A stretch of 64,000 nucleotides of DNA from an uncultured Anaerolineales bacterium (GTDB lineage Bacteria > Chloroflexota > Anaerolineae > B4-G1): positions 1,096-65,095 of the forward strand of contig CAZKDJ010000002.1 in NCBI GenBank assembly GCA_964551295.1, written 5' to 3'. This document shows, one piece after another, positions 11,815 through 63,540 of the stretch. The first letter of the stretch is position 1, and every line of letters begins with the position of its first letter. The position numbers were made by a program, and so were the translations under genes. The notes under the pieces were generated by a model. It did no database searches. It saw nothing but the letters and a program-made list of their open reading frames with translations, and had not been told where the DNA came from.

Positions 11815-13962
11815 ATGGGGCGCGCTGCCTTGCGGCAGCGCCCTTTATTAGAGGATTCTATGGGCAACCGGCAACGACTTGGGCGATGGGCGCTCGTGGC
11901 TCTCTTTCTGCTGGCCTTCGTGCCACGGGCCATACACCCCGTCTCCCGCCCCCTCCAGTGGTACTTTCGCTCGGCGCAGTTCTTCCAGGCCGTTCTGCAC
12001 GGCGATCTGGCGGGCACGCTTTTCTCCGAGCATCCCGGCGTGACGGTGATGTGGCTTTCGGGGGCGGCGCTGTGGGGTTGGTACGGCCTGCAGTCCCTCT
12101 TGGGCCTGAACCTGCCCCCGCCGCTGGAGACGGAGGGGTACGCCTTCGCCGACCGGGTTGCGGTGGGCGTGGTACCGCTGGCGCTGGTGGTTTCTTTGGG
12201 CATCGTCTGGGGGTGGTTCCTCCTGCGCCGCCTGTTTGGGCGGCGGGTGGCTTGGGTAGCGGCGCTCCTGTGGGCGATCGATCCCTTCTTCCTGGCGAAC
12301 TCCAAGGCGCTTCACCTGGACGCCACGCTTTCCACACTGATGACGCTCTCCGCCCTGTGGATGCTGATCTACCTGCGGGAGCGCCGCTGGCGGCAGTTGG
12401 TCCTCTCCGCCATCCTGGGCGGCCTGGCCATCTCGACCAAGATATCGGCGGTCTTTATGTTCCCCTTCTGGGGCCTCTGCCTCCTGGTGGATTGGCTTCT
12501 ATCGCTCCGCAACTCTCAATCTCCAATCTCCAATCTCTACCCCCTGATCTTGAATCTTGTGCTCTGGGCTCTCATTGCCGTCTTTGTTTTCACTGCCCTC
12601 TGGCCCGCCCTGTGGGTACGTCCAGGGGATAGCTTTGGCTGGCTGATCGACGAGGGGGTGCTTTTGCACAAGGACGACGTCCGCAACCAGCCCCTGTTCT
12701 ACCGGGGGACGCTGGCCGTGCAGGATCCCGGCGTCCGATTTTACGCGGACACGCTGCTCTTTCGCACCACGTTTCTGACACTGCCCTTCTCTTTGGTCGG
12801 CCTGCTGGCGTTGTGGCGGCGGGAGGAACGCCTGCCGCTGCTGCTGTTGGTCGGTTTTGCCCTGTTCTTTTTCGTGCAGATGTCGCTGGGAGGATGGAAG
12901 GACACGCGTTACATGCTGCCTGTGCTGCTGGCTCTCGATGTGCTGGCCGCGTGCGGCTTAGTCTGGTGGGTGGGACGCTTGCCGATAAGGGGCTGTGGGC
13001 AGATCGTCGTCATCGTGGGATTGCTGGCGGTTCAGGCCGTCGTCGTGCTCTCCCGTCATCCTTACTACGGTACCCATTACAACGCGCTGATGGGCGGCGC
13101 GCGCGCGGCGGCACGGGTCTTTCCCCTGGCCGAGTGGGGGGAGGGGTTGGATCGGGCCGGGCAGTACGTGGACGGCCAGCCCGGCGTGGAGGATTTCGTC
13201 GTCGGCACCCAGTTCCTGGCCAACGAGATGCTGGCCCAACACATCCGCGCGCCGGTCTACGAAACGGGCCAGGTGGAGGACGAGGCGGACTATTTGGTGT
13301 TCGGCGTGCAGTACACGATGCGCGGAAAAAACTATGGCCGTTGGGGCGAGGAGTGGGAGCAGACCTACAAGTTCCGCCAGCCGGAGTTCGTCGCGTCCTT
13401 CGGCGGCATTCCTTACGCCTGGGTTCATCGACCTGGCGCGGAGCCCGCTGTCCCTCACAAGCTAGATGCCGGGTTAGGGGGGGCGATTCGGCTGGTGGGC
13501 TACCGCCTGGCCCAGGAGGCGGTCTCGGCGGGAGATACGCTGGTGTTGACCCTCTATTGGCAGGCGGAGCAGCCTGTCAAAGGTGACTATACCGTTTTCG
13601 TTCACCTGCAAGGGCCGGACGGCAGCCTGATGGCGCAGCAGGATAACCCGCCCGTGCGCGGCACGCGGCCCACGAGCGGTTGGGCGCCCGGCGCGCTGGT
13701 CGAGGACCCCTACGAGGTTCAGGTACCCGCCGACGCCGCTTTCGGCCGGTATACGCTCAACGCGGGGATGTACGATCCGGCGACGGTGGAGCGATTGGAG
13801 GCGGTCGACGCTGATGGTAGGCGGTTGTCTGAGAATCGCGTCGTGCTGACCGGCGTGATGGTGCGGCCGGCGGTGCCCTGGTGGCGATGGGTGCTCTCTG
13901 GGGCGTGGCTAGTGGTCGTGGCGGCTGGTGTTTTGCAGGCTTGGTTCGGGAGGCGGGAGTGA
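11815..13962 (+). CDS. GT-C-like (GT39/ArnT-like) polytopic membrane protein, class A-short, with 1 C-terminal module and a terminal TM anchor
   Basis: Loop motif PVSRPLQWY...HPGVTVMW and IDPFFLANSKALHLDA, shared with the genes at 39218, 43024 and 56854. Module LTLYWQAEQPVKGDYTVFVHL...RPTSGW...GRYTL. Final helix WVLSGAWLVVVAAGVLQAW. Alternative start ATG 11860 with a GAGGA SD. Confidence 0.8.
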   Translation: MGRAALRQRPLLEDSMGNRQRLGRWALVALFLLAFVPRAIHPVSRPLQWYFRSAQFFQAVLHGDLAGTLFSEHPGVTVMWLSGAALWGWYGLQSLLGLNLPPPLETEGYAFADRVAVGVVPLALVVSLGIVWGWFLLRRLFGRRVAWVAALLWAIDPFFLANSKALHLDATLSTLMTLSALWMLIYLRERRWRQLVLSAILGGLAISTKISAVFMFPFWGLCLLVDWLLSLRNSQSPISNLYPLILNLVLWALIAVFVFTALWPALWVRPGDSFGWLIDEGVLLHKDDVRNQPLFYRGTLAVQDPGVRFYADTLLFRTTFLTLPFSLVGLLALWRREERLPLLLLVGFALFFFVQMSLGGWKDTRYMLPVLLALDVLAACGLVWWVGRLPIRGCGQIVVIVGLLAVQAVVVLSRHPYYGTHYNALMGGARAAARVFPLAEWGEGLDRAGQYVDGQPGVEDFVVGTQFLANEMLAQHIRAPVYETGQVEDEADYLVFGVQYTMRGKNYGRWGEEWEQTYKFRQPEFVASFGGIPYAWVHRPGAEPAVPHKLDAGLGGAIRLVGYRLAQEAVSAGDTLVLTLYWQAEQPVKGDYTVFVHLQGPDGSLMAQQDNPPVRGTRPTSGWAPGALVEDPYEVQVPADAAFGRYTLNAGMYDPATVERLEAVDADGRRLSENRVVLTGVMVRPAVPWWRWVLSGAWLVVVAAGVLQAWFGRRE
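12515..12538 (+). repeat. Heptanucleotide tandem repeat (TCTCCAA)n inside a CDS
   Basis: tctcaa tctccaa tctccaa tctc, encoding SQSPISNL. Confidence 0.7.
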
Positions 13963-16478
13963 GTCAGCAGGCAGAGTCACTGCATCGAGGACGTAGGCTC
14001 ATACCCCTGGCCGTGTTGGTCCTGTACGCCGTTGCGACCGTCGCGATGACCTGGCCGCTGGCAGCCCAGTTGAGCACCCACGCAGCCGGCAGCGGGAACG
14101 ACATGTGGATCTACCACTGGGGCAACTGGTGGACCCGCAAGGTGCTGACCGAAGGGGGTAGGCTGTATTGGACGTCGTATATGTTCTATCCCCAGGGCAT
14201 CAGCCTCACGTGGTACGCGTTTAGCTGGCTCAACACGGCCATCTGGCTGCCGCTGCAGGCCCTGATAGGCGCTCTGGCGGCCTATAACGTCGTGGTGCTG
14301 CTTTCCTACCTGATCAGCGCCTTCACGGCGTACCTGTTGGCGAGAGAGTTGACCGGCGCGTACCTTGCCGCTTTTATCGGCGGGCTGGTCTTTGCGTTCT
14401 ATCCGGCGCGCAACTCGTACCACAGTCATCTCAGTTTCTTGAGTGTACAGTGGATTCCGCTCTGCGCGCTGTTCCTGGTTCGGATCACCCGTCAAGGTCG
14501 CTTACGGGATGGCTTGGGGGCGGGGGTCTCCTTCGCGCTGTGCGGTTTGAGCGGGGAGCGCTTGCTCCTGCTCACACTGTTTTGGGCTGCCTTGTGGCTG
14601 GGCTATAGCCTCCTGTTCGAGCGGCGTCATTGGGGCCACAAAACGATCAGGACGTTACTGCTGGCTGTCGTTACGTGTGCCCTGATCGCGGGACCGCTGC
14701 TCGCACCGCTGGCCGTGGGGTTTTTTGACCCCGATACGTCGCAGGATTTGACCGCTTCGACCCCTGCTGAGAAAAGGACCGATCTGTTGGCTTATTTCAT
14801 ACCCAGCCGGTACCATCCGCTCCTGAGCCAAAAGACTGCCTTCAAGAAGCTCTACAAGAGCGTGGTGAACTTTTGGGAGCGCTCGGCTGCTGTTGGATAT
14901 GGCGCGCTGGCACTGGTTGGGTGGGCCGTGTGGAAGCGCTGGCGCGAGGCGCGGCCTTGGGTCTTTGCCGCCTTGATCTCTGCTCTGTTGGCGCTGGGAT
15001 CGACGCTCGAGTTCAACGGGCACGAGCTCATCCCACTGCCCTACAGATTGCTGGCTTTTACACCGCTCAGCACGGCGGTTCGAAACCCGGAGCGGTTCAA
15101 CATCATCTTGGCCCTGCCGATAGCGGTCCTGGTGGCCATCGGAGTTTCCGATCTGCTCGGCCGCCTGCGTGCCGGCATTGTCCCACGAGGTCTGTTAATC
15201 GTCGGTATCACCTGCCTGGTACTTTTCGAGTACCTGGTTGTGCCGTTCCCTACGACGCGGCCCGTTCAATCTGCTTTCTACGAGCAGTTGCGCGAGGAGC
15301 CGGGTGAGTTTGCCGTTGTCGATTTTCCGATTGGCTTTCACTCCCACAACAAGTGGTACGTGTACGCCCAGACCCTCCACGGCCGGCCGACGGTGGAGGG
15401 GAACCTGGCGCGAGTTCCTGCCGGCGCCCACAGTTTCATCGAGAGCGTGCCTGTTCTGAGTGCGGCGCGCGTTTCTCCGCCGCAGGAGGGGGCGTTGGAC
15501 GACGTCACCCGCCAGTTGAGTCCCCTGGCCCAGGTCGGTGTGCGCTATGTGCTGATTCACAAATACCGCGCCAGCAAGGACGAGGTCTCGCGCTGGCGGA
15601 GGTGGTTCGCCTTTGCGCCTTGTTATGAGGATGAGTATCTGCTCGTCTTTCGTACCACGCCGCGCTATGGGGAGGGTTTCGAGTTCACGACCGAGTTAGG
15701 AGATGGCATCGGGGTGATAGATACAAGCGTTTCGCCGCGTGAAGTGGGGCAGGGAGGATCGGTGGGCGTGAAGGCGGTGTGGGTCTCTCGGGACGCACCA
15801 CGCCAGGACTGGATGGTACGTCTGGCCCTGGTGGATCCGACGGGCCAGGAGGCGCAAGGTGAGGATTTCGAGCTCTTTCCGGATTGGCCGACGTCGCAGT
15901 GGGGCCCAAGCGCCGTGGTACGTGGGCAATGGACGTTGCAGGTAGATCCGTACATACCGGGCGGTACGTATTCGATGACCCTGGGCTTGGTGGATTCGGT
16001 GACGGGCGAGCGATCGGATGAATCGATCGCGTTGGGTCGGTTGAATGTGCAGGCGATTGAGCGGGTATTTGAGGCGCCCGAAGTGGAAACGGAGAGCGAA
16101 GCGGTCTTTGGACAACTGCGGCTGCTGGGGTACGATCTGCATCAGGGGAACGATCAGGTGAGGATAACGCTCCACTGGCAGGCATTGCAGCGAATGGACG
16201 AGGCCTACAAGTTCTTTGTACACCTGGTCGATCCGGTCAGTGGGCGGTTGGTCGCCCAGGCCGACGTGATGCCCTACGATTGGACCTATCCGACTTTTTG
16301 GTGGGAGGCAGGGGAGTTCGTCTCCGATGAGATTACGTTGTCGTTGGAAGGCGTTCCACCAGGCGTGTATAACCTGTACGTGGGCGTCTACCGTGCTGAT
16401 GGTGAGCGATTGCCGGTTAGTTTGGGAGGAGATCGGTACGAGCTTGAGGATGAGATAACGGTCCCGAAAGGACTTTGA
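13959..16478 (+). CDS. GT-C-like polytopic membrane protein, class B, with 2 C-terminal modules
   Basis: N-terminus VAMTWPLAAQLSTHAAGSGNDMWIYHWGNWW (class-B signature). GTG 13959 overlaps the upstream TGA (GTGA). Modules contain VWVSRDAPRQDWMVRLALVD...WPTSQW and ITLHWQALQRMDEAYKFFVHLVD...YPTFWWEAGE. Confidence 0.8.
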   Translation: MSQQAESLHRGRRLIPLAVLVLYAVATVAMTWPLAAQLSTHAAGSGNDMWIYHWGNWWTRKVLTEGGRLYWTSYMFYPQGISLTWYAFSWLNTAIWLPLQALIGALAAYNVVVLLSYLISAFTAYLLARELTGAYLAAFIGGLVFAFYPARNSYHSHLSFLSVQWIPLCALFLVRITRQGRLRDGLGAGVSFALCGLSGERLLLLTLFWAALWLGYSLLFERRHWGHKTIRTLLLAVVTCALIAGPLLAPLAVGFFDPDTSQDLTASTPAEKRTDLLAYFIPSRYHPLLSQKTAFKKLYKSVVNFWERSAAVGYGALALVGWAVWKRWREARPWVFAALISALLALGSTLEFNGHELIPLPYRLLAFTPLSTAVRNPERFNIILALPIAVLVAIGVSDLLGRLRAGIVPRGLLIVGITCLVLFEYLVVPFPTTRPVQSAFYEQLREEPGEFAVVDFPIGFHSHNKWYVYAQTLHGRPTVEGNLARVPAGAHSFIESVPVLSAARVSPPQEGALDDVTRQLSPLAQVGVRYVLIHKYRASKDEVSRWRRWFAFAPCYEDEYLLVFRTTPRYGEGFEFTTELGDGIGVIDTSVSPREVGQGGSVGVKAVWVSRDAPRQDWMVRLALVDPTGQEAQGEDFELFPDWPTSQWGPSAVVRGQWTLQVDPYIPGGTYSMTLGLVDSVTGERSDESIALGRLNVQAIERVFEAPEVETESEAVFGQLRLLGYDLHQGNDQVRITLHWQALQRMDEAYKFFVHLVDPVSGRLVAQADVMPYDWTYPTFWWEAGEFVSDEITLSLEGVPPGVYNLYVGVYRADGERLPVSLGGDRYELEDEITVPKGL

Positions 16479-16570
16479 ATGGCGGGCTGCCTCTGGCTGA
16501 CGACCGGTACTCGCAAGCTAGAATTTGCAAATTCTTTGAAGTCGAATACAATAGCAAACTTGAGCGCGAA

Positions 16571-16672
16571 GTATCATCTCAATAATCCGGGGGGCGGGGG
16601 GGGGGGGGGGGGGGGGGGGCCCCCCCCCCCCCCCCCCCACCCCCCATCTTCCCCTATTTATTGAGAAGATAC
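16571..16672. mobile_element. MITE copy 1 (102 bp) with an 8-bp target-site duplication AGCGCGAA
   Basis: TIRs GTATCATCTCAATAA (16571-) and the reverse complement GTATCTTCTCAATAA (-16672). Identical AGCGCGAA at 16563-16570 and 16673-16680. The core is a G/C homopolymer palindrome. Confidence 0.75.
16589..16645. repeat. Homopolymer palindrome G6-C-G24 / C19-A-C6
   Basis: Direct count: G 16589-16594, C 16595, G 16596-16619, C 16620-16638, A 16639, C 16640-16645. Confidence 0.9.
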
Positions 16673-16690
16673 AGCGCGAATTTAATCTGA

Positions 16691-18667
16691 ATGGAGGAAA
16701 ACATGTTGCCAGTAATAACATCTTTCAATGCAAGAAGGCTGGGTGTTTTGTTTTTAACTATGTGCATAGCGGGCTTTGGGCTGACGACGTTCAGTCGGGC
16801 TTCTGCGCCAGAGCGCGCAGCCGCGCCGGCAGGGACGACGATTGGATCCGATATCACGGTCGACACGACCTGGACACTGGCCGGGAGTCCTTACTACGTG
16901 ACAAAGAAAGAGATTCAGATCAACCCTGGGGTCACCCTGACGATAGATCCGGGTGTACAAGTCCTCCTCAGAGATCAGGGCAAGATACACATTGCCGGTG
17001 GTGCATCCTTGATCGCCAGAGGGACCCCCAGTCAACACATTGCTTTCACGCAGATTGACGCTTACAGTCGCTGGAAGACGATCAACCACTACGCTGGATC
17101 GACCTCCTATTATCGTTACGTTGATTTCACCATAGGCGGTAAGGATATGGCGATGTTGCACTACGAGGGGTCGGGAACGCACACGCTGAATAACTGTACG
17201 CTCGATCATTCTTCGAAACACGGTATCTATGCCCATGGCAGTGGATTGAATCTGAGAATCGCCGGGGTCAGTATTACCCACTTTGGGCTTTACGCGCTGG
17301 CAGTTGACGAAGGTGCTGCGGTCCACATGACCGGATCCAACGTCTTTCATACGGGGCCGAAAAACGGAGTGAGTCTGAACGGTGCAACGTCGGCGCTTAC
17401 GATCACGCATTCGAACGTCTTCGTTCCCAACTTGGGCATCTACAACCAAGTCCCCGGCAGTTTCTGCGTTAACGCCCAGTACAATTGGTGGAATGACGCC
17501 AGTGGGCCCGCCGGCGGTGGCGGAGGAGTCTGTGGGGTGGGAGGTAATGGCGGCAGTGGTACGATTCTGAGTACCGGCGTGGACTGGCGCAACTATCTTG
17601 CCTCCCCTGCTCCCATCGTCGGCATCGAGACCACCCCCGTTCCATCCTTTACCGTCTCTCCCGATCCTAGCGTTGCGCAGCCTCCGGGTACCACTTACAC
17701 TTTCAACGCCTCCATCAGCACCGACGCTGAGGATTATCTCTCTTCCCTCGATTTCTGCTGGGATTGGGAGGATGACGGAGGCGGGTGCGACGCCACGACC
17801 GTCGTCGCGACCCACAGCTATGCCTCCGGTGGTCTACACACAGCGCGCCTGACCGTCACGGATACCGATGGCATGGTCGGCACGCTGACGCAGGATATCC
17901 AGGCCGGGTATGTGCCCACCGCGACCTTCACACTCACTAAAACGTCCTGGGCACAGATCGAGGTCGATCCTTCCGCCTCGAGTGACGTCGAGGATGCCCC
18001 GGGGGATCTGCTGGTCCGCTGGGACTGGGAGGGGGATGGCGTGTGGGATACAGGCGCGTACAGCGTCACCGATATTCTCACCCACGCATACGATCACATT
18101 GGACGTTACTGGCCCACTCTCAGTGTAGAGGATACAGATGGACTGGTCGACACATCGAGCATGGCGGTGGACATCATTCCGCCAGCGGCGACGAAAGTCA
18201 TCAGCGGCAGTGGAGGCACGCTGACCTCGGTGGATGGCACCGTTTGGGTCAATGTGTACACCGATACGGTGGCAGGCACCGTCATTAGCGATGGGTTGGT
18301 GATCACCCATACGCCCTGGATCACTGTGCCCATCGGCTGTAGCGCCGTGCCGGGAGATTTCACTTACCAGGGGTTCACACTGGCCGCCGAGTCGCAAGCC
18401 GATGGACAACCCATTGAACAGATCAGCGGCACTTATACGATCACGATTGCGTATGATCTCGATTACTATCGCGACGTGCTTGGCCTGCTGGTGGCCGAGA
18501 ATGTGCTCAAACTGTACCGTTGGTCGGATGCCGATGGCGAGTGGGTGCTGGTGTCGTTCACGGTCGACTCCGGGCAGCTCGTGGCAACGACGAACAGCTT
18601 TGGCGACTTTGCTTTGGTTCTGGAGCCGCATAAGGTTTACTTGCCGCTAGTCTGCAGGTCATACTAG
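16691..18667 (+). CDS. Secreted/anchored right-handed beta-helix protein with two PKD domains
   Basis: N-terminal hydrophobic signal/anchor (LGVLFLTMCIAGFGLTTF). Parallel beta-helix-like repeats (TIGSDITVDTTWTLAGSPYYV...INPGVTLTIDPGVQV...). Two PKD units (FNASISTDAEDY...HSYASGGLHTARLTVTDTDG and VDPSASSDVEDAPGDLLVRWDWEGDG...HAYDHIGRYWPTLSVEDTDG). Alternative start ATG 16703 after GGAGGA. Confidence 0.8.
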   Translation: MEENMLPVITSFNARRLGVLFLTMCIAGFGLTTFSRASAPERAAAPAGTTIGSDITVDTTWTLAGSPYYVTKKEIQINPGVTLTIDPGVQVLLRDQGKIHIAGGASLIARGTPSQHIAFTQIDAYSRWKTINHYAGSTSYYRYVDFTIGGKDMAMLHYEGSGTHTLNNCTLDHSSKHGIYAHGSGLNLRIAGVSITHFGLYALAVDEGAAVHMTGSNVFHTGPKNGVSLNGATSALTITHSNVFVPNLGIYNQVPGSFCVNAQYNWWNDASGPAGGGGGVCGVGGNGGSGTILSTGVDWRNYLASPAPIVGIETTPVPSFTVSPDPSVAQPPGTTYTFNASISTDAEDYLSSLDFCWDWEDDGGGCDATTVVATHSYASGGLHTARLTVTDTDGMVGTLTQDIQAGYVPTATFTLTKTSWAQIEVDPSASSDVEDAPGDLLVRWDWEGDGVWDTGAYSVTDILTHAYDHIGRYWPTLSVEDTDGLVDTSSMAVDIIPPAATKVISGSGGTLTSVDGTVWVNVYTDTVAGTVISDGLVITHTPWITVPIGCSAVPGDFTYQGFTLAAESQADGQPIEQISGTYTITIAYDLDYYRDVLGLLVAENVLKLYRWSDADGEWVLVSFTVDSGQLVATTNSFGDFALVLEPHKVYLPLVCRSY

Positions 18668-18683
18668 TTTTGATCGCTGTTTC

Positions 18684-18731
18684 AAAGGTGCCAGGCGCTG
18701 CTCGGGCGAGCGCTTGGCACCTTTATTTCTT
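18684..18731 (+). terminator. Rho-independent terminator
   Basis: 15-bp stem AAAGGTGCCAGGCGC / GCGCTTGGCACCTTT (one G-U pair), 11-nt loop, followed by ATTTCTT. Confidence 0.65.
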
Positions 18732-18741
18732 GATCATGGCC

Positions 18742-18770
18742 TTGCCTCAAACGGTTACTTGCATTACAAT
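18742..18770 (+). promoter_or_regulatory. Array promoter P2: TTGCCT-17-TACAAT
   Basis: TTGCCT at 18742-18747, 17-nt spacer, TACAAT at 18765-18770. ATG 18779 follows 8 nt later (leaderless-type spacing). Confidence 0.6.
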
Positions 18771-18778
18771 GCCTGCCG

Positions 18779-41263: not shown

Positions 41264-41300
41264 GGCTATGATTGTGCGGAAAGCTAGTGGAGCATTCGGG

Positions 41301-42989: not shown

Positions 42990-43023
42990 AAGATCATTTT
43001 AGCGAGGAAGGATATATCGAAAA

Positions 43024-45123: not shown

Positions 45124-45187
45124 CCGGTTGAGGAGACGACCGGTGACGGAGGGCATAGGGCGTAATCGGGGAATGAGAGGAGACAGC

Positions 45188-47683: not shown

Positions 47684-47725
47684 GCCGATTCCCCAATCCG
47701 TGATTTGGTGTATTGGATGAATTGC

Positions 47726-47753
47726 TTGTCAGCCAGCAGGGGGAGGCTATAAT
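47726..47753 (+). promoter_or_regulatory. Array promoter P4: TTGTCA-16-TATAAT
   Basis: TTGTCA at 47726-47731, 16-nt spacer, TATAAT at 47748-47753. A leader of about 100 nt follows, containing two hairpins. Confidence 0.55.
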
Positions 47754-47858
47754 GCCATGGTCTGCCACCATGGCCCGTGAGACCCGTTTTCTGCCAGGGG
47801 AGCACTTGGACTTCTCCCCATGCGTTGTTGGGGTGTAGAAATAAAAGGTGCAAGATAG

Positions 47859-53698: not shown

Positions 53699-53715
53699 CG
53701 AGAACGGCACACCTG

Positions 53716-53747
53716 TCCGTTTATCCGTTCATTCCGTTCAATCCGTT
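53716..53747 (+). repeat. Four TCCGTT motifs at 8-9-bp spacing in the intergenic region
   Basis: TCCGTT at 53716, 53724, 53733 and 53742, in gtccgtt tatccgtt cattccgtt caatccgtt. Confidence 0.7.
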
Positions 53748-53786
53748 GAATATCTTTGGGGCAGCCGATTGGACAAAGGAGCAAAC

Positions 53787-56700: not shown

Positions 56701-56825
56701 ATCATCTGCGTGTGGGTATGTACGGTTGGCCGTCCCTTGAACGGCTGCCCGCTTTTCGTCCCGATGGGAGCCGCTGGCCCGACGATCAGGTCCTTTTGGG
56801 CGATGTTCGCGTTGTCTTGCCCTAA
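53787..56825 (+). CDS. Double GT-C fusion, class D: DUF2029/GT87-like N-terminal half plus GT39/ArnT-like second half plus 1 C-terminal module
   Basis: GTG 53787 after an AAAGGAG SD. First half has LLYRDVFTTTPPLINFLLIP. Second half has YLWTNDEGLYMQRAALANAGYPLYAEIYLNKPPLLVWIL (classic DE...KPPL ArnT/PMT_2 loop). Module VMLLWRCETPPSADYHVFVHLVD...RPTSQW. Confidence 0.78.
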   Translation: MTGNTYVWRILGVFVALFAVYLAVALVVLEPVGYYGTAEKSGFTDPWIERVETILSGGLLYRDVFTTTPPLINFLLIPPVLVSGLFDHQYLWATVSFMAYYSIFNLFAAYALLYTPDDRKEGYRSALIFLLNPLTFGNSLLRRQDESILVFFLALAVLFFAHRRPAMTGVAMGLGSLVKLTGAPVIPVAFLQTRDWRYLVIPALVFALVFAPFLIAAGRSAVFWDVTQRDTEHPFQFAGISLGHLWSRAHDGELLVGLTTYSAMFVVGVLVVLAIIAWRPLGLLEDLALLLTTIFLLTAKLHCGYFSLLVLALAPLVRKYRVGDLYFLSGLVILLADMHKSPLDDYATAFNLMVVGFLLLVAAMVLIRRSRRADESGSGEVIFRLPGRGWMRAAYWVVWGVVIALYLAWPLAHLNDYLWTNDEGLYMQRAALANAGYPLYAEIYLNKPPLLVWILQLAFQLAGPTVATARFTVLCLTLVGFVATAIVARQLWSRWAGLAAAGVLLALPEVPARANVVMADLPALALALVAMAAALCFRRSGRRDWMVLSGATFAGALLIHPVLVYMALPLAMILFWPADKSWCRIAPLDVLIFVGTAAVAGLLVLIAVDRRAFFRWVFQFNYGAGADLLEPQKNWERITGYLKDIWPLVGLSALSAAALSLSPEKRRPLLIAVVWWLATVAILMASSPLQKQYLLFLAFPLVVIAGGGLIAVGKWVIGHVQGGRFLRGWRAVLALLMLISAVLLAVDRWEETKPYFALAAEWSADHLAARAFLEQQVSPGGFVATDDPFLAFAAGRLVPPSLTELSTKQIKVGNLMANDVKGTVLWYEAQVVLFSTNRLERLPGLEDWVASVAAERRDFGELRAYRLELPPSVSLSDPVRLGSEIEPRGYALSGNELHPGEMLAVMLLWRCETPPSADYHVFVHLVDGEGRVWGQHDGPPAMGSRPTSQWMAGQRVFDVHPIEVEQIPPGRYHLRVGMYGWPSLERLPAFRPDGSRWPDDQVLLGDVRVVLP

Positions 56826-56853: not shown

Positions 56854-58986
56854 ATGAAACGGCTCAAGTCCTTCGTTTCTCACATCTTTCCAATTGCGCT
56901 CTTCGTCGTCGCCTTCCTCCCCCGCGCCATCCGACCGGTCTCCCGGCCCCTGGTCTGGTATCTGCGCTCTGCCCACTTCATCGACGCGGTGCTGGCGGGC
57001 GATTGGGCGAACACGGTCTACTCGGAGCATCCAGGCGTGGCGCTGATGTGGCCAGCGAGCCTAGGCCTCAAGCTCTACTGGGCGCTCTTCGACATCACTC
57101 CGGCGGCCCAAAGCGTGCCGCCCGACTTTGAGCCGATCAAGTTCTTTGGCCCCGTGCCCGTGAACGAGATCGCCGCCGCGCTGCTGCCGTTGGCGCTGCT
57201 GATCTCGCTGGGCGTCGTGGGAGCCTATTTCTTGCTGCGCCGCCTCTTTGGCGCGCGAGTCGCCGCGGTCGCCGCCCTGCTCCTGGCCCTCGATCCCTAC
57301 TACCTGGCCCAATCCAAGATCCTCCATCTGGATGCGTGGCTGGCGACGTTGATGCTGCTCTCGGCGCTGGTATTGCTCCTGTACTGCCGTGAGCGCCGCG
57401 CGCGCTGGCTAATCCTTTCGGCTGCGTTAGGCGGGCTGGCCCTCCTGACCAAACCTACTGCCTTGTTTCTAGTTCCCTTTGGTGGCCTCGTTCTCCTGGT
57501 CAACGCGGCACGCAGCACGCAGCCGAGTTGGACTCTGCGCAATCTCCAATCTCTAATCTCCAGTCTCTTTGTCTGGCTCCTCATCGCCGCCCTCATCTAT
57601 TTCGCCCTCTGGCCCGCCATGTGGGTGGACCCGGTGCGGGCACTGAAGGCAATTGAGGGGGGACTGTCTCGCCACGTGAGCAGCGCCCACGACTCGCCGA
57701 CCTTTTTCCTAGAGCAGGTCACGTACGAGGATCCCGGGCCGGTGTTCTACCCTGTTTCGATGCTCTTTCGCACCGGCGAGGTGGCGCTGCTCTTTTCGCT
57801 CGTCGCGGGGGTTTTGGGCGTGGTCTATCTACTCCGCCGCCGCCGGCTTTCGCAAGCCGGGGTTGATTATCTGCTTCTCCTGGCTTACATCATCTTCTTC
57901 CTGGCTCAGATGAGCCTGGGGGCGAAAAAGATGCCGCGCTACGTCCTGCCGGCCGTCTTGGCGCTGGACGTGCTGGCGGCAGCGGGAATCGTCGTCTGGG
58001 CGCGCGCGCTGGCAGGCAGGTGGCGCGCCTTGACACTGGTCTTGATGGCGCTCCCTGTGCTGGTTCAGGCTGCGCTGGTTTTGCCGCGCCATCCCTATTA
58101 CGGCACGGCCGCCAACTGGCTGGCCGGCGGCCCTCAGGCAGCCGCGCGCGCCATCCTCACCGGCGAGGAGGGCGAAGGACTGGCAGAGCTGGCCGCGACG
58201 CTCAACGCCCGCTCCGATGCGGAGGAGTTAACTGTCGCAGCGCAGCTCAAGCACGTGTTCAACCAGTGTTTTCGCGGCGCTACGTTGGATATTCACGAGC
58301 GCCCGGCCGACTATTTTGTCTTTCACCGCAACTATACCGTGCGCGATTACAAGATCGAGCAGTGGGATGCATTGTGGGAGCGGCACGCTGCTCGCACGCC
58401 GGAGCGGCAGATCGACTTTGATGGCGTGCCCTACGCCTGGCTCTATGCGGCGGTGCCCGCCGAGGCGGAACCCGAGCACGCACTGGAGGTTCACCTGGGC
58501 GACCGGCGGCGCTTCCTGGGACACGACCTACGCTCGACGGAAGTGGCCCCCGGCGACCGCGTTCCGCTCGTGCTGTATTGGCAGGCGGTGGAAGCGAGTG
58601 AGGATGACCTGAGCATCTTCCTTCACTTGATGGGACCAAGCGGTGAGTTGATCTGGCAGGACGACGGGGCGGCTGCCCACGGCACGCGCCCCACGTGGAG
58701 CTGGGAGATCGGTGAGGTGGTCGTCGATCCTCATACGTTGATGCTGCCACGGGATCTGCCCGAAGGGGACTATCGGCTGGTGACCGGCCTCTACAACTGG
58801 CAGACGGGCGAACGGCTGCCTGCGACCACGCCAGGGGGCGAGGGGCTCGCCGACGATCAGATCGCCGTGGCCACGCTCGTCGTCCGGCGGCCGCGCGTCC
58901 ATCCGGCAGCTTGGGTCGCATGGGGGCTTGGCGGGTTGGTGCTGCTCTCTGCATTGGTGATGCCGGTTCGGAGGTCCGATGGCTGA
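56854..58986 (+). CDS. GT-C-like membrane protein, class A-short, with 1 C-terminal module and a terminal TM anchor; paralogue of 11815..13962
   Basis: MKRLKSFVSHIFPIALFVVAFLPRAIRPVSRPLVWY...HPGVALMW. Module LVLYWQAVEASEDDLSIFLHLMG...RPTWSW. Final helix WVAWGLGGLVLLSALVM. The ORF-track start 56551 overlaps the previous gene. Confidence 0.82.
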   Translation: MKRLKSFVSHIFPIALFVVAFLPRAIRPVSRPLVWYLRSAHFIDAVLAGDWANTVYSEHPGVALMWPASLGLKLYWALFDITPAAQSVPPDFEPIKFFGPVPVNEIAAALLPLALLISLGVVGAYFLLRRLFGARVAAVAALLLALDPYYLAQSKILHLDAWLATLMLLSALVLLLYCRERRARWLILSAALGGLALLTKPTALFLVPFGGLVLLVNAARSTQPSWTLRNLQSLISSLFVWLLIAALIYFALWPAMWVDPVRALKAIEGGLSRHVSSAHDSPTFFLEQVTYEDPGPVFYPVSMLFRTGEVALLFSLVAGVLGVVYLLRRRRLSQAGVDYLLLLAYIIFFLAQMSLGAKKMPRYVLPAVLALDVLAAAGIVVWARALAGRWRALTLVLMALPVLVQAALVLPRHPYYGTAANWLAGGPQAAARAILTGEEGEGLAELAATLNARSDAEELTVAAQLKHVFNQCFRGATLDIHERPADYFVFHRNYTVRDYKIEQWDALWERHAARTPERQIDFDGVPYAWLYAAVPAEAEPEHALEVHLGDRRRFLGHDLRSTEVAPGDRVPLVLYWQAVEASEDDLSIFLHLMGPSGELIWQDDGAAAHGTRPTWSWEIGEVVVDPHTLMLPRDLPEGDYRLVTGLYNWQTGERLPATTPGGEGLADDQIAVATLVVRRPRVHPAAWVAWGLGGLVLLSALVMPVRRSDG
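57543..57570 (+). repeat. Degenerate heptanucleotide repeat (TCTCCAA-like x4) inside a CDS
   Basis: tctccaa tctctaa tctccag tctcttt, at the loop position homologous to 12515-12538. Confidence 0.6.
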
Positions 58987-61228
58987 GCGAATGGCCCAGT
59001 GGATACTGGCGGTGATCCTCGCGCTCTTTGTAGGCTTGGGGGTGGCGTATGCCTTTACCACACCCACGCTGGAGGCCCCCGACGAGATTCATCACTATGA
59101 TTACATCCGCAGCCTGGTCAACACCGGCAGTCCACCGGGGGCAAAAGAGGGCCAGAAGAGCTTTAGCAATCACGCGCCGCTTTACTATGTGATAGGCGCG
59201 CTGGGTTCTGCCTGGGTGGGTGAGGACGACCTGGATACCTGGCGTACGCGCTACAACCCGTACTTTGGTTATCGCTTCGGCGACATGGGGCGGGATAACA
59301 AGAACATCTACTTTCATCCCGACGAGGATCGTTTCGGCGCCAGCGATACCTGGCTGGGCGTCCGAGTTGTGCGCGTAATGTCCGTTCTGATGAGTGCGGC
59401 TACCATCTGGGTTATCTATCGCGTCGGGCGGGAGGTGTTCCCCGATAGGCCCGAGATGGCGGTCGGAGCGGCCGGGTTAGCGGCTTTTATCCCCGAGTTC
59501 CTTTTCATCTCGGGCGCGGTCAACGATGACAATGGCGCGGCCCTCTTTGGCGCGCTGTCTCTGTGGACGATGGTGCGCATCGTGCGCCGGGGGTTTAGCC
59601 CGCGCCGCTGCGTTGGGCTGGGGGTGGCCTTGGGGTTGGGATGGCTCTCCAAGCTGACGACGGCAGCGTTGATACCGGCGGCGGGCCTGGTGATGGCGCT
59701 GGTCGCGTGGCGCAATCGATCCTGGCGAGATCTGCTTATTTGGGGTTTGGTGGTCTTTGGGGTGGCGGCGCTGCTCATCGCGCCCTGGGCTGCCCGCCAG
59801 TATGTGCTTCACGGCGACCCTATCGGCCTGGCACAGGAAATGGAGGGGTTTGGAGAGCCGGAACGTGCGCCCTCCCTGGCCGATCTGTGGCCCGACCTCT
59901 ACTGGCTGCGCACCTCCTTCTGGGGCCGTTTGGGCGCCAACCAAGTTCCTCTCGCTGGCTGGATATACATCGTGCTGGACGCGGTGACCCTGTTGGCCCT
60001 TGCCGGTCTCGTGCGGTCCCTAATCCGCTGCCACAGCCTCCTCCAATCTCCAATCTCCAATCTCCATTCCCCATTTGCCGAGCGCTTCCAGCAGTTCGCT
60101 ATCCTTGCGGCAGCTTTTCTCCTTACCTTCGGCCCCATGGTCGCGCGGCGCTTCCTGCGTCCCATGCCCAACTTTGGACGTTATTTGTTCCCGGTGCTGC
60201 CGGCTATGGCGTTGCTGCTGTTCACCGGCCTGGCGGCCTGGCTGCCCCGCCGCCGTCACGCGCTGCTGGCCTTGGGTGTCACAGTGGCGATGCTGGTGCT
60301 GGGGATCGCTGCGCTGGTCTTTTTCCTGGCGCCCGCCTATGCCCGCCCGCCTATCTATGACGCCGCTTCTGCGCCGGAGCCCAAATATCGGCTGGACTGG
60401 GTCTACCTGGAGGATGACTGTCCTATCGCTCGCCTGCTCGGTTACGATCTCGGCAAGAAGCGGGTCGAGCCGGGGGGGACGCTGCGAGTGGTGCTGTACT
60501 GGGAGGTGCTGGGCGAGACCGAGACGAATTACACGCTCTTTGCGCAGTTGTTCGGGCGCCAGGCGGCGACGGTGGGCCAGCGGGATACCCACACCGGGCT
60601 GGGTCATTATCCAACCTCCTTCTGGCAGACCGGGCAGGTGATCGCCGGCGAGGTGTTTATCCCCGTTGCCTCAGACGCCCTTGGTCCCACCAAGCTGCGG
60701 CTCGACGTGGGCCTTTACCGGCGCGGCGGTGGAGAACGCTTGGCGGTCGTGGACGCTGCAGGCGACCCGGTGGGCGCGGCGACGATCGGCTGGCTGAAGT
60801 TGAACGCTGTGAAAGAACTCCCCCCGCCCGAGGTCGCCACCGATTATCGCTTTGGAGAGTGCATTGCTCTCGTCGGCTATGATTTGGAAAGAGATGCCGA
60901 GGGAGCGCAACTCATTCTCCATTGGGCCTCCCTGGGGTCGGTGGATCAGGACTATACCGTGTTCGTGCACCTGGTCGGTCCCGACGGCGAGCTGGCTGCC
61001 CAGGCGGACGGCCCACCCACGGGCGGCGATTATCCCACGTCGATGTGGGAGTTCGGCGAGATCATCTTTGACGAGCGGCTCGTCGCGACGCAGAACCTGC
61101 CCGCGGGTACCTATCACCTGCGCCTGGGGATGTACCTGCTGGAGACCGGCGCGCGGTTGCCCGCCCTGGATGCCAGCGGCGAGCGTCTGCCGGATGACGT
61201 GGTGGAGCTGACGGAGGTGGAGCTGTGA
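58979..61228 (+). CDS. GT39-like GT-C membrane protein, class E (PDExxH first loop), with 2 C-terminal modules
   Basis: TPTLEAPDEIHHYDYIRSL...HAPLYYV. Modules contain VVLYWEVLGETETNYTLFAQLF and LILHWASLGSVDQDYTVFVHLVG...YPTSMWEFGE. 8-nt overlap with the upstream gene. Confidence 0.82.
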   Translation: MAERMAQWILAVILALFVGLGVAYAFTTPTLEAPDEIHHYDYIRSLVNTGSPPGAKEGQKSFSNHAPLYYVIGALGSAWVGEDDLDTWRTRYNPYFGYRFGDMGRDNKNIYFHPDEDRFGASDTWLGVRVVRVMSVLMSAATIWVIYRVGREVFPDRPEMAVGAAGLAAFIPEFLFISGAVNDDNGAALFGALSLWTMVRIVRRGFSPRRCVGLGVALGLGWLSKLTTAALIPAAGLVMALVAWRNRSWRDLLIWGLVVFGVAALLIAPWAARQYVLHGDPIGLAQEMEGFGEPERAPSLADLWPDLYWLRTSFWGRLGANQVPLAGWIYIVLDAVTLLALAGLVRSLIRCHSLLQSPISNLHSPFAERFQQFAILAAAFLLTFGPMVARRFLRPMPNFGRYLFPVLPAMALLLFTGLAAWLPRRRHALLALGVTVAMLVLGIAALVFFLAPAYARPPIYDAASAPEPKYRLDWVYLEDDCPIARLLGYDLGKKRVEPGGTLRVVLYWEVLGETETNYTLFAQLFGRQAATVGQRDTHTGLGHYPTSFWQTGQVIAGEVFIPVASDALGPTKLRLDVGLYRRGGGERLAVVDAAGDPVGAATIGWLKLNAVKELPPPEVATDYRFGECIALVGYDLERDAEGAQLILHWASLGSVDQDYTVFVHLVGPDGELAAQADGPPTGGDYPTSMWEFGEIIFDERLVATQNLPAGTYHLRLGMYLLETGARLPALDASGERLPDDVVELTEVEL
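60040..60067 (+). repeat. Heptanucleotide tandem repeat (TCTCCAA)n, 4 units, inside a CDS
   Basis: cctccaa tctccaa tctccaa tctccat, encoding LLQSPISNLHS. Absent from the sister gene at the aligned position. Confidence 0.7.
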
Positions 61229-63540
61229 TGAGCGAGCGGGTGGCGCGGTGGACGCTGTCCCTCATCGTGGGAAGTTACCTGATTCTGGGGCTGGCCTACA
61301 GCCTGGTCAATCCCGTTTTCGAAAGTCCCGACGAGGCGCTGAACTATGCCAACATCCGCTTCTTTGTCGAGCAGCGCAGCCTACCGGTGCTGGAGCCGGA
61401 CGAGGTGAGCAAGGCCCATCACCCGCCGCTCTACTACGCGCTGGGGGCGTTCGTTACCTTCTGGGTGCCAGACGACAATTTTGATGCCATCGTCGCGCGG
61501 GAGAATCCCTTCTGGGCATACAAGTTGGAACCCGGAGTGGATAACAAAAGCCTGTACCTACACGATCCAGAGTTGGAGGGCTTTCGGGATGCGGCCCTGG
61601 GTGTGCTGCTGGTGCGCTGGTTATCGCTGCTGATGGGGGCGGGGACGGTCCTGTGCGTGTACGGTACGGCGCGGGAGTTGTTCCCCCGCCGGATGGGACT
61701 GGCGGTAGGCGCGGCGGCGCTGGTGGCCTTTAACCCCATGTTTCTGTTCATCAACGCATCCGTTCACGACGATCCGCTGGCGAACCTGGTGGCGGCGGGT
61801 GTGCTTTACGTGACCACGAGAATCCTCGTGCGCGGCGTGACGGTACGGCGGGGGGCGGTCCTGGGTCTGCTGGTCGGATTGGCCATCCTGACCAAGTTGA
61901 CCTGCCTGCTGGTGCTGCCCACGGTTGGACTGGCCCTGCTGTACGGCTCCCTGGTTGGACATGGTGCCGTAGCCGCGATTTCCGATCTCGCGCGGTTGGG
62001 AAACCGCGCCTACGGCGTGCGCGATGGGTGGCGGCAGCTTCTACAAGTCGGAGCCACCGTCGCCCTGGTGGCGCTCCTGGTCGGCGGGTGGTGGTTCGTG
62101 CGCAACCAGATTCTCTACGGCGACCCAACCAGTATGAGTCGCCAGATGGAGGCGTGGGAGGACGAACGGCCGGGCGGCCCGGATATCGTGGCGGCGGTAC
62201 GCGAACTGGGTTTTTTGCACGACTCGGCCTGGGGCGCCTTTGGCTACGGGCAAATCCCGCTGCCGGGCTGGACCTATGGGCTGGCGCGGCTGCTGGGGTT
62301 GGTGGCTTTGGGCGGGCTGGTTCTCTTTTGGATTCGCCGCCACTCTGGACGGGTTCCCTGGGAGCGGCCGTCGCTCGCGCTGCTGATCGTGTTCAGCGGC
62401 CCGCTGGTGGTCTTGGCGACCATTTTTGTCCGCATGGTCTTCATCGACACGGCCAACTTTGGCCGCTACCTGTTCGTCTCGTTGGCGTTTCTGTCGCCGC
62501 TCTATGTGCTGGGGTTGAGCGAGTGGCTGCGGCCACGCGCCCGCCGCTGGTTGCCGATTGGGCTGGCGCTCGCCACGCTGGCCCTGGCGCTCTTTGCCCT
62601 CTTTGGCGTCTTGCGGCCCGCCTACGCGTCCCTGGCGATGCGCTCTGTCGAAGAGATTCAGGCCCGCACCCAACCTGCCGATTTGCGCTTTGGCGATTCG
62701 ATTCGCCTGGTGGGTTACGCCATCGACCGCGGCTGCGTTCTGCCCGGTGGTGAGGTGACCATCACCCTGTGCTGGCAGGCGCTCGCGCCGACGGAGGAGG
62801 ACTATGTCTACTTTGTCCACATCCTCGGGCCGGAGGAGAGCAAGGCGGGAGCGCGCGATACCCACCCCGGCCTAGGCCGCTACCCCACGGGGCGCTGGTC
62901 GCCTGGCGATGCCTTTTGCGACGACGTGCGTGTCACGGTGGGGAAGGATGCCCCTGCCCCGGCAGTCTATGACGTTGCGGTGGGGTGGTACTTGTACGAG
63001 GACGCCCGGTTGAAAGAGCACCTGCCCGCCTACGATGCGAGCGGCGCACCACTGGAGCTGGTGACGCTGGGCAAGGTCAAGGTCCGGCCTGAGGCGTATG
63101 CCACCGTCGAGGTGCCCCATCGGCTCGACGCCAACCTGGGCGGACGGGTCATGTTGCTCGGCTACGACATAGACCGGCGGGCGGTCGCGCCTGGTGGAGA
63201 GATCAACGTCACCCTCTACTGGGCGGCCCAGGTCCCCGTGCCCGTCGACTACAGCGTCTTCCTGCACCTCGCCGCTCCCGAGGGGGCGCCGTATGCCCAG
63301 GCCGATGGTCATCCCCAGCACGGCGCTTACCCAACCTCCTTCTTGGACGTGGGCGAGGTCGTGGCCGATCCCCGTACCGTCGTCGTCCCCGCTGATCTAC
63401 CGCCGGGCGAGTATCCGCTGGTGGCGGGGATGTATTTTCTAGAGACGGGGGAGCGTCTGTCGTGGCTAGCGCCTGATGGAAGCGCTCGGGGCGATGCCGT
63501 GCCGCTGCTGACGCTCGCGGTTAGCGTCGACGCCCCTTGA
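61225..63540 (+). CDS. GT39-like GT-C membrane protein, class E, with 2 C-terminal modules
   Basis: GTGATG junction (start GTG 61225 or ATG 61228). NPVFESPDEALNYANIRFF...HHPPLYYA. Modules contain ITLCWQALAPTEEDYVYFVHILG and VTLYWAAQVPVPVDYSVFLHLAA...YPTSFLDVGE. Confidence 0.82.
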   Translation: MMSERVARWTLSLIVGSYLILGLAYSLVNPVFESPDEALNYANIRFFVEQRSLPVLEPDEVSKAHHPPLYYALGAFVTFWVPDDNFDAIVARENPFWAYKLEPGVDNKSLYLHDPELEGFRDAALGVLLVRWLSLLMGAGTVLCVYGTARELFPRRMGLAVGAAALVAFNPMFLFINASVHDDPLANLVAAGVLYVTTRILVRGVTVRRGAVLGLLVGLAILTKLTCLLVLPTVGLALLYGSLVGHGAVAAISDLARLGNRAYGVRDGWRQLLQVGATVALVALLVGGWWFVRNQILYGDPTSMSRQMEAWEDERPGGPDIVAAVRELGFLHDSAWGAFGYGQIPLPGWTYGLARLLGLVALGGLVLFWIRRHSGRVPWERPSLALLIVFSGPLVVLATIFVRMVFIDTANFGRYLFVSLAFLSPLYVLGLSEWLRPRARRWLPIGLALATLALALFALFGVLRPAYASLAMRSVEEIQARTQPADLRFGDSIRLVGYAIDRGCVLPGGEVTITLCWQALAPTEEDYVYFVHILGPEESKAGARDTHPGLGRYPTGRWSPGDAFCDDVRVTVGKDAPAPAVYDVAVGWYLYEDARLKEHLPAYDASGAPLELVTLGKVKVRPEAYATVEVPHRLDANLGGRVMLLGYDIDRRAVAPGGEINVTLYWAAQVPVPVDYSVFLHLAAPEGAPYAQADGHPQHGAYPTSFLDVGEVVADPRTVVVPADLPPGEYPLVAGMYFLETGERLSWLAPDGSARGDAVPLLTLAVSVDAP

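Follow-up and report, generated by a model that had tools for sequence, protein, structure and literature searches.

An Ig-like module repeated at the C-termini of GT-C glycosyltransferases in a Chloroflexota gene array: a candidate carbohydrate-binding domain

Why do so many membrane glycosyltransferases, encoded side by side in one bacterial genome, end in the same soluble module? The question is raised by a stretch of 64,000 nucleotides (hereafter the window) from an uncultured Anaerolineales bacterium of the Chloroflexota (GenBank assembly GCA_964551295.1, contig CAZKDJ010000002.1, positions 1,096 to 65,095 of the forward strand). It carries an array of 21 open reading frames (ORFs; orf00 to orf20, starts taken from the maximal ORFs), all in one direction on the + strand at 11815-63540, in many of which stop and start codons overlap. 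According to a hydropathy scan 20 of the 21 encode large polytopic membrane proteins, the exception being orf02. Eighteen of these 20 glycosyltransferases end in one to three copies of the module. As modelled, it is an autonomous soluble Ig-like beta-sandwich domain of about 135 aa, and we hold it slightly more probable than the alternatives taken together that it acts as a tethered extracytoplasmic domain resembling a carbohydrate-binding module (CBM), with the acceptor, or some feature shared along the polymer, as its ligand.

Starting from a single seed, the C-terminus of orf01, phmmer finds 25 further segments at an independent E-value (i-E) below 1e-3, and after four profile rounds there are exactly 31 significant copies (i-E 1.4e-22 to 1.3e-41, for a model trained on these same 31 copies; independent controls were added). 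When the whole window is scanned in six frames, these 31 copies are recovered, all on the + strand (13462-63528), and no others. Not one of 441 shuffled or reversed array proteins matches the module profile at E<=10, and with these clean controls chance similarity and low complexity are ruled out as the source of the copies. In array order the membrane proteins carry 1, 2, 2, 2, 1, 0, 2, 2, 2, 3, 1, 0, 1, 2, 1, 3, 1, 1, 2 and 2 copies (Table 1). The MAFFT alignment of all 31 has a mean column identity of 37% and an invariant W33 (residue numbers refer to orf16 module 3, 53291-53695); its consensus reads LLGYxL, LxWQA, DYxVFxHLxD, AQxD, PTxxWxxGE, PxGxYxLxxGxY and GERL. The original prediction, made by eye, had arrived at the same total, the same counts per protein, the same 18 of 20 module-bearing proteins and an agreeing consensus. 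The three examples it placed at 16101-16475, 38815-39215 and 60830-61225 correspond to orf01 module 2 (16092-16475), orf10 module 3 (38808-39215) and orf19 module 2 (60839-61225). It had also recognised a degenerate variant nearest the membrane in one group of carriers (class B, see below). These copies reach i-E values of only 0.0012-1.6 with the single seed but 1e-22 to 1e-30 with the profile, and the one in orf08 adopts a beta-sandwich when the complete protein is modelled.

An AlphaFold2 (AF2) model of 53291-53695 (135 aa, with the 31 copies as alignment) is all-beta with eight strands (pLDDT 95.2, pTM 0.87) and shows a long conserved loop between strands 5 and 6. The last strand comprises residues 127-134, so that the segment folds as one complete domain, in keeping with the predicted size of 125-135 aa and with the beta-sandwich that was expected. 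No Pfam-A (2025 copy) or NCBIfam 20.0 model reaches its curated cut-off over the module, either in the whole proteins, which match in their membrane part only, or in the 31 modules alone at E<=10. The best Pfam-A matches of the latter are CsgH (0.0043), PBP (0.0078), Wzt_C (0.014) and DUF4832 (0.034), none of them near the cut-off; Wzt_C (PF14524, gathering score 30.4) matches two of the 31 copies. Among database relatives the matches are likewise mostly partial and sub-threshold (Wzt_C, DUF4832, ML, NPCBM_assoc and MalQ_N). Wzt_C reaches 19-20 bits against the gathering score, its recurrent matches covering profile positions 25-108 of 143, and DUF4832 reaches 18-23 bits against 29.2. One relative (P0269) has a precomputed PF14524 match, and three score just above the cut-off, each for a generic beta-sandwich family and over stretches of some 25-45 residues only (TcfC 31.5/29.4, MalQ_N 27.5/24.1, NPCBM_assoc 26.4/24.4). 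The module thus appears to have no dedicated curated model in the copies of Pfam and NCBIfam searched, as the lack of a recognisable name in the original prediction had implied. In the literature searched no description of it was found either; only the comparators EmbC, Wzt and GT136 turned up.

In Foldseek searches against the PDB all matches are Ig-like sandwiches of a generic kind, with 10-18% identity; they comprise ML domains such as NPC2, the carbohydrate-binding domain (CBD) of Wzt, RhoGDI and RbmA. The Wzt domain superposes on the module with TMq 0.65 (6o14_B), 0.66 (2r5o_A) and 0.59 (8dky_A) at E 1e-5 to 2e-4; RbmA reaches TMq 0.53. By E-value the best matches are NPC2, MD-2, MD-1, Der f 2 and RhoGDI (E 6e-6 to 3e-4, TMq 0.42-0.60). 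At the sequence level the sole PDB match of the module profile is RbmA (E 1.2e-3, in two partial stretches), with which the module has the hairpin GxYxLxxxxxDxxxGERx in common; the corresponding family, PF22021 (RbmA FnIII), matches four of the 31 copies with a best E of 0.1. Both the Wzt domain and RbmA, a glycan-binding matrix protein, are hints of glycan binding from fold and sequence.

The copies are not all alike: they cluster by carrier class and by position within the protein. Terminal copies of different classes are 32-41% identical, against 21-32% between a terminal copy and the internal copies of its own protein; at no more than 32-41% between classes, recent gene conversion is ruled out as the cause of the cross-class similarity. 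We defined a signature of 15 positions (33, 48, 59, 61, 64, 70, 71, 74, 77, 78, 82, 95, 97, 104 and 111). It reads exactly WHQDPPTWGEDGYYR in 13 of the 18 terminal copies, irrespective of carrier class. Internal copies retain W33, W74, G95 and Y97 and have lost H48, D61, E78, D82, Y104 and R111. The pattern extends to database copies (150 terminal, 308 internal), where the polar positions are conserved at a level of at least 0.94 in terminal copies against 0.3-0.6 in internal ones (D61 1.00 against 0.52, R111 1.00 against 0.31, H48 0.94 against 0.31; Q59 and D82 reach 0.98 and 0.99 in terminal copies). Since internal copies that lose these residues still fold, the polar residues are not needed for the fold and, judged by their conservation, mark a functional site. 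Across all 21 class B pairs, conservation is higher in the terminal copy than in the catalytic domain (56.5% against 37.5%), while the internal copy, with 36.1% identity, does not exceed the catalytic domain.

These figures bear on the simplest alternative, namely that the module is purely a structural spacer or stalk without ligand, conserved through folding constraint only. Internal copies behave as such a stalk would, tolerating loss of the polar signature while keeping W33, W74, G95 and Y97. For the terminal copy, however, the polar residues are near-invariant although dispensable for the fold, and this copy evolves more slowly than the enzyme domain to which it is attached. We therefore regard a pure stalk as very improbable, the least probable of the alternatives considered.

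To what kind of protein is the module attached? Compared by BLAST, the regions that precede the first module fall into five clusters: class A (orf00, orf11, orf13 and orf18, termed A-short, together with orf10 and orf16, termed A-long), class B (orf01, orf03, orf04, orf06, orf07, orf08, orf09, orf12 and orf14, with orf05 as a distant member), class E (orf19 and orf20) and the singletons orf15 and orf17. The six classes counted originally are thus fair as labels (A, B, orf05, orf15, orf17 and E), but only five remain by BLAST, where orf05 joins class B and A-long joins A-short. Pfam PMT_2/PMT matches are found in classes A and E, orf15 and orf17, and a class A profile matches ArnT (5ezm, E 2.6e-5). 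The protein encoded by orf17 (53634-56825) contains two tandem GT-C domains, GT87 at aa 120-344 (E 1.5e-10) and PMT_2 at aa 497-646 (E 3.5e-8). The single module of this protein is terminal and is preceded by some 14 hydrophobic segments; public gene calls begin later (1012 aa). Class B has no Pfam match, and its profile has no match among PDB sequences; its fold was reached through an AF2 model in combination with Foldseek. The full-length orf08 model (pLDDT 90.7, pTM 0.78), in which residues 563-685 form the beta-sandwich of the membrane-proximal module, matches STT3, ArnT, DPY19 and EmbA/B. Hhalign relates class B to class A with 96.5% probability (E 8e-10, 363 columns), and class B relatives sporadically match DUF6311, DUF2079, PTPS_related and PMT_2.

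Because of the PMT_2, PMT and GT87 matches, the alignment of class B with class A and the resemblance of the class B model to STT3, ArnT and DPY19, we conclude that all carriers are divergent families of one superfamily, GT-C. The same evidence rules out the 'unrelated' membrane domains of the original prediction, and the argument that a module found on unrelated scaffolds must be autonomous is therefore weakened. Autonomy itself still stands on the module folding by itself (pLDDT 95), and both autonomy and mobility gain support from the discordant relatives of the C-terminal cassettes of orf01, orf07 and orf14 and from the variable tether length, both described below. Outside the window a comparable range is seen: matches among 48 database carriers are to PMT_2 (33), PTPS_related (10), PMT (6), TMEM260-like (4) and DUF2079 (1).

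The first extracytoplasmic loop contains PDE in class E, ADE or SDE in A-long and an invariant D39 in class B. The A-short proteins (orf00, orf11, orf13 and orf18; loops at approximately 11900-11990, 39290-39380, 43100-43190 and 56870-56960) have RP (VSRPLEWY) where A-long has an ArnT-like DE (VADEARWT / VASDELRWT), with an invariant D51 about 15 residues after the RP. The canonical GT-C acidic pair seems to be lost in these four proteins.

On which side of the membrane the module lies can be estimated from the charges around the last transmembrane (TM) helix. Over all 20 proteins, the 15 residues on either side of this helix contain 68 lysines and arginines before it and 21 after it. From this difference (the positive-inside rule) and from the known GT-C architecture we infer that everything C-terminal of the last TM helix lies outside the cell. 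In two proteins, orf00 and orf18, the chain returns to the membrane beyond the module through an extra hydrophobic helix, which places the module between two anchors; in orf00 this helix ends in a positively charged tail, in agreement with an outside location of the module. The remaining 16 module-bearing proteins end 0-8 residues past it. Between the last TM helix and the terminal copy there are 129 to about 540 residues, a stretch occupied by zero to two degenerate copies and, except in class E, by an alpha/beta linker domain.

The topology is also relevant to the possibility that the module is an ML/RhoGDI-like lipid sandwich. Such a sandwich would work at the outer face of the membrane and take up the donor's polyprenyl tail, polyprenyl phosphate after its release, or an acceptor linked to a lipid. 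NPC2, MD-2, MD-1, Der f 2 and RhoGDI, which head the fold search, all bind lipids or prenyl groups, weak matches to the ML domain (PF02221) recur in relatives (E 0.054 for one copy in the window), and in orf00 and orf18 the module is pinned near the bilayer. Yet the identity to the ML and RhoGDI structures is only 10-18%, and the residues separating functional from degenerate copies are polar or charged rather than the lining of a hydrophobic cavity. ML domains are stabilised by disulfides, whereas the alignment of the 31 copies contains no conserved cysteine; moreover, a terminal copy can lie as far as some 540 residues from its membrane anchor. A lipid-binding function is in our judgement improbable.

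In three class B proteins the nearest relative of the catalytic part is not that of the C-terminal cassette (modules 1 and 2). The N-terminal part of orf01 is closest to orf08 (49.7%, against 33.8% for orf14), while its C-terminal part, from about residue 555, is closest to orf14 (64.1%, against 48.5% for orf08); for informative sites in both parts jointly the Fisher p is 3.9e-13. The N-terminal part of orf07 is nearest to orf09 and its C-terminal part to orf08 (Fisher p 1e-8), and orf14 has discordant relatives as well (Fisher p 9e-11). Because the nearest relatives of the two parts differ, these comparisons indicate that the cassette has been exchanged between paralogs. The exchange is not recent gene conversion, since the cassettes are only 59-73% identical.

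Two class B paralogs, orf06 (26462-28240) and orf12 (41133-42989), have no module at all. Both end just past the alpha/beta linker domain, and since the next genes begin at 28173 and 43024 there is no room for a module; neither space nor a module remnant is found downstream.

Cassette exchange and module-less paralogs have to be set against the idea that the module is integral to catalysis, completing the acceptor or donor site of the GT-C enzyme as the C-terminal domain of STT3/PglB/AglB does by supplying WWDYG. The best full-length fold matches are indeed STT3 enzymes, in which the C-terminal domain is catalytic; the confident full-length orf08 model leaves room for a defined domain arrangement, and the terminal copy is more constrained than the TM domain. 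On the other hand, one and the same signature occurs on GT-C families whose sequences can hardly be aligned, tether lengths lie anywhere between about 130 and about 540 aa, with zero to two intervening sandwiches and with the alpha/beta linker present or absent, the cassette is swapped between paralogs, and orf06 and orf12 keep the conserved GT-C core without a module. We give a catalytic role little credence, about as little as lipid binding.

The module is by no means restricted to this array. Hmmsearch against 1.84 billion representative proteins (clusters at 50% identity) finds 32,079 proteins at E<=1e-3, 22,452 at 1e-10 and 7,579 at 1e-30; a single protein has four copies at most. All of 150 representatives have the module at the very end of the protein (a median of 0 aa follows it, and never more than 19), and all representatives with at least 400 residues upstream of the first module are polytopic in that part. 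All named relatives, obtained from searches with seven class B terminal copies (close relatives only) and with a three-module query, belong to the Chloroflexota: Anaerolineae, Ardenticatenales, Caldilineae, Promineifilaceae and Dehalococcoidia. A homologue search with a single-module profile yielded only fragments of at most 240 aa, and tblastn of one module against 72,556 plasmids gave no match. Metagenome-assembled genomes of Chloroflexota repeatedly show arrays in which as many as seven genes per 20 kb bear the module. Single-gene contexts exist too, for instance one between leucine and arginine biosynthesis genes (L044).

A beta-sandwich accessory domain on a GT-C enzyme is in itself already known, and the comparison with such systems shows what appears to be new here, namely the sequence family. 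A close parallel is GT136 ORF12, an O-antigen ribofuranosyltransferase of Citrobacter youngae, to which we liken the array proteins by description: it is a GT-C enzyme with a periplasmic, beta-rich Ig-like domain of about 150 aa at its extreme C-terminus, and this CBM binds the acceptor O-polysaccharide in isolation (PMC11127046). ORF12 differs in having a single copy, where the module occurs in one to four tandem copies, and in being part of a proteobacterial three-component system with adjacent synthase and flippase, neighbours which the array does not have. EmbC, EmbA, EmbB and AftD also carry an accessory beta domain C-terminal to the GT-C membrane core. The C-terminal domain of Emb is lectin-like, with conserved tryptophans that bind the acceptor and affect product length, and the CBM of EmbC binds arabinan acceptors and is required for full activity and full-length product (PMC3044687). 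However, this domain consists of two different subdomains whereas the module repeats one unit, neither Emb nor AftD is among the best 50 PDB fold matches of the isolated module, and Emb is only a weak whole-protein match to the orf08 model (7bvc_B, TMq 0.25). The closest glycan-binding fold is the Wzt CBD (PF14524; 6o14, 8dky, 2r5o), with sub-threshold Pfam matches over about 85 residues; it recognises a defined glycan terminus or cap (PMC9445017). Wzt_C is cytoplasmic, dimeric and fused to an ABC-transporter ATPase, in contrast to a module predicted outside the cell and on GT-C enzymes. With the Wzt CBD among the nearest folds and the EmbC and ORF12 precedents documented, binding of a glycan or acceptor and the parallel with Emb, both put forward in the original prediction, are reasonable.

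RbmA of Vibrio cholerae (PF22021; 4kkp, 4be5) shares the tandem arrangement of sandwiches, here of FnIII type, but is a secreted matrix scaffold rather than an enzyme appendage. It also points to a different partner: the terminal site could dock onto a common protein, be it an acceptor glycoprotein, an S-layer or sheath protein, or another module, which would assemble a surface glycosylation complex. The fold search relates tandem copies to tandem RbmA FnIII domains, to the tandem C-terminal barrels of transglutaminase and to arrestin, and RbmA gives the one profile match mentioned above. Moreover, the carriers belong mostly to PMT_2/PMT/TMEM260-like families, and characterised GT-C enzymes of the PMT and TMEM260 types include protein O-mannosyltransferases and O-glycosyltransferases. 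A secreted PKD/beta-helix protein (orf02) is encoded inside the array, and one conserved site on 18 different enzymes would suit a single common partner. Nevertheless, a site rich in W, Y, H, D, E, Q and R would be typical of sugar or phosphate sites and not of flat protein interfaces, RbmA itself binds polysaccharide, and no candidate partner consistently co-occurs, single-gene contexts such as L044 included. Protein docking is consequently unlikely in our view, though it deserves more weight than the lipid, catalytic or stalk alternatives.

The reading we favour, binding of a glycan outside the cell, could work as follows. The carriers are GT-C-fold glycosyltransferases, enzymes that use polyprenyl-phosphate-sugar donors, with the module fused at their C-terminus. 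In the terminal copy H48, Q59, D61, T71, W74, E78, D82, Y104 and R111 would form a polar and aromatic site for the acceptor or for a common feature of the growing cell-surface glycan or glycoconjugate, and binding would hold the enzyme on its substrate in the manner of a CBM. Internal copies, having lost the site, most probably serve as spacers which extend the reach of the terminal copy. Because the same site is kept on barely alignable catalytic domains, one shared scaffold is suggested, to which all 18 array enzymes would be addressed and which each would modify differently.

Several points weigh against this proposal. The fold matches are generic (TM 0.5-0.66), and lipid-binding ML domains and RhoGDI are among the top ones. 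The putative site was placed by sequence positions, with which a surface patch, an interior pocket and a contact with the catalytic domain are all compatible. The ligand class, the spacer role and the shared scaffold are what we infer, and binding is a prediction. No gene for a polyprenyl-phosphate sugar synthase, a flippase or an obvious acceptor adjoins the array, the flanks encoding VWA, PP2C, WD40, IS200, GDH-CBS and Zip proteins. The CBM of GT136 ORF12, finally, is dispensable for activity (PMC11127046), and a CBM-like role may accordingly be only modulatory.

Positions of all module copies and associated features are listed in Table 1. The only array gene that does not encode a GT-C enzyme, orf02, specifies a possible surface protein or acceptor of 658 aa; it has a single hydrophobic segment, at the N-terminus, together with PKD domains (E 1e-12) and a region of right-handed beta-helix. 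The same array genes turn up in metagenomes, on contigs of JGI 3300031281 and of two Logan assemblies. On a sister contig a Zip transporter gene directly follows orf20, so that orf20 is taken as the end of the array; read from the ATG one codon after the GTG, orf20 matches the gene on the sister contig. The pairs orf11-orf12 and orf13-orf14 (39218-47683), each an A-short gene followed by a class B gene, resemble a duplication (orf11 with orf13 and orf12 with orf14, BLAST E ~1e-200 each). The G+C content is 0.55-0.57 in two blocks (16001-24000 and 40001-48000, the latter spanning the pair orf11-orf14) against 0.62-0.66 in the remaining array, which points to compositional heterogeneity within one gene array. 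AT skew on the + strand is strongly negative (-0.10 to -0.29) across 12001-64000, probably because T-rich codons specify the hydrophobic residues of 20 membrane proteins in a row.

Upstream of the array a VWA gene (3610-4380) is followed by a PP2C phosphatase gene (4467-5240) and by a gene for a 970-aa protein combining a WD40 beta-propeller with CarboxypepD_reg (5253-8165); possibly these genes (3610-8165) make up a signalling cluster that has nothing to do with the array. A gene for an IS200-like Y1 transposase (8262-8792; PF01797, E 7e-24) is located 3 kb before the array and is adjoined by a gene for a glutamate-dehydrogenase-like protein fused to CBS domains (8902-10776).

Table 1. Positions in the window of the array, its module copies (m, numbered from the membrane outwards) and associated features.
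Feature	Position	Strand	i-E	Remarks
Co-directional array	11815-63540	+		20 GT-C-fold membrane glycosyltransferase genes and one PKD/beta-helix gene (orf02)
orf00 (A-short) m 1/1	13462-13869	+	6.8e-40	terminal type, then extra TM helix; signature WHQDPPTWGADGYYR
orf00 hydrophobic helix	13888-13950	+		after module, aa 692-712; tail ends GRRE (hydropathy scan, sequence)
orf01 (class B) m 1/2	15684-16088	+	5.5e-30	internal degenerate; without H48, D61, E78, D82, Y104
orf01 m 2/2	16092-16475	+	1.5e-37	terminal type; exact signature
orf02	16691-18667	+		PKD/beta-helix protein; sole non-GT-C array gene
orf03 (class B) m 1/2	20501-20905	+	3.1e-24	internal degenerate
orf03 m 2/2	20897-21286	+	2.3e-38	terminal type; exact signature
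orf04 (class B) m 1/2	22975-23382	+	1.1e-22	internal degenerate
orf04 m 2/2	23389-23781	+	3.7e-38	terminal type; exact signature
orf05 (distant class B / PTPS_related-like) m 1/1	26148-26552	+	1.9e-31	terminal; signature WHQDLLPWGAYGYYR
orf07 (class B) m 1/2	29979-30383	+	9.1e-27	internal degenerate
orf07 m 2/2	30393-30785	+	4e-38	terminal type
orf08 (class B) m 1/2	32471-32875	+	6e-28	internal degenerate; beta-sandwich in full-length AF2 model
orf08 m 2/2	32885-33268	+	4e-38	terminal type; exact signature
orf09 (class B) m 1/2	35026-35418	+	1.4e-22	internal degenerate
orf09 m 2/2	35419-35811	+	7.4e-35	terminal type; exact signature
orf10 (A-long) m 1/3	37950-38360	+	7e-34	internal; H48/Q59/D61 kept, E78/D82 lost
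orf10 m 2/3	38391-38795	+	1.1e-28	internal degenerate
orf10 m 3/3	38808-39215	+	7.3e-38	terminal type; exact signature
orf11 (A-short) m 1/1	40850-41257	+	1.3e-39	terminal type
orf13 (A-short) m 1/1	44710-45117	+	2e-38	terminal type; exact signature
orf14 (class B) m 1/2	46868-47275	+	2.3e-29	internal degenerate; 66% identity to orf01 m 1
orf14 m 2/2	47282-47677	+	3.6e-37	terminal type; exact signature
orf15 (singleton PMT_2 class) m 1/1	49998-50402	+	1.8e-33	terminal type; exact signature
orf16 (A-long) m 1/3	52436-52846	+	3.5e-32	internal
orf16 m 2/3	52874-53281	+	1.4e-31	internal degenerate
orf16 m 3/3	53291-53695	+	1.3e-41	terminal type; AF2-modelled copy, pLDDT 95.2
orf17 (GT87 + PMT_2 double GT-C) m 1/1	56415-56819	+	4.5e-35	terminal type
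orf18 (A-short) m 1/1	58483-58890	+	3.4e-37	terminal type, then extra TM helix
orf18 hydrophobic helix	58903-58971	+		after module, aa 785-807 (hydropathy scan)
orf19 (class E) m 1/2	60404-60814	+	1.1e-31	internal; begins 25 aa past last TM helix
orf19 m 2/2	60839-61225	+	2e-33	terminal type; exact signature
orf20 (class E) m 1/2	62677-63084	+	1.2e-30	internal
orf20 m 2/2	63124-63531	+	9e-37	terminal type; L in place of W74

Every domain of life relies on GT-C enzymes to build cell envelopes and glycoproteins. To our knowledge acceptor recognition by these enzymes is poorly understood beyond a few model enzymes, and the envelope chemistry of the Chloroflexota is largely unknown. In concept the finding is no surprise, and if the module proves to be an ordinary CBM it would amount to an incremental annotation. 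What is unusual is the occurrence in one to four tandem copies of which only the last keeps the site, the spread over at least six GT-C subfamilies, the exchange of cassettes between paralogs and the very large size of the family. As such it is a concrete target for Pfam and CAZy curation, and a natural system to study the recombination of accessory binding domains onto membrane glycosyltransferases.

More speculatively, and with rather less confidence than we place in glycan binding as such, the terminal module may found a new CBM-like family (at least 32,000 clusters at 50%) that serves as an address tag for extracytoplasmic glycosylation throughout the Chloroflexota. Dozens of GT-C paralogs per genome, differing in catalytic specificity, would then be docked on one envelope scaffold through one conserved site that they share, and recombination would shuffle the tag-plus-spacer cassette among them. 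One compact domain with a near-invariant site is in any case common to at least six GT-C subfamilies and to tens of thousands of uncharacterised proteins, and it offers an easily expressed probe for the envelope polymer on which these expanded GT-C arrays act.

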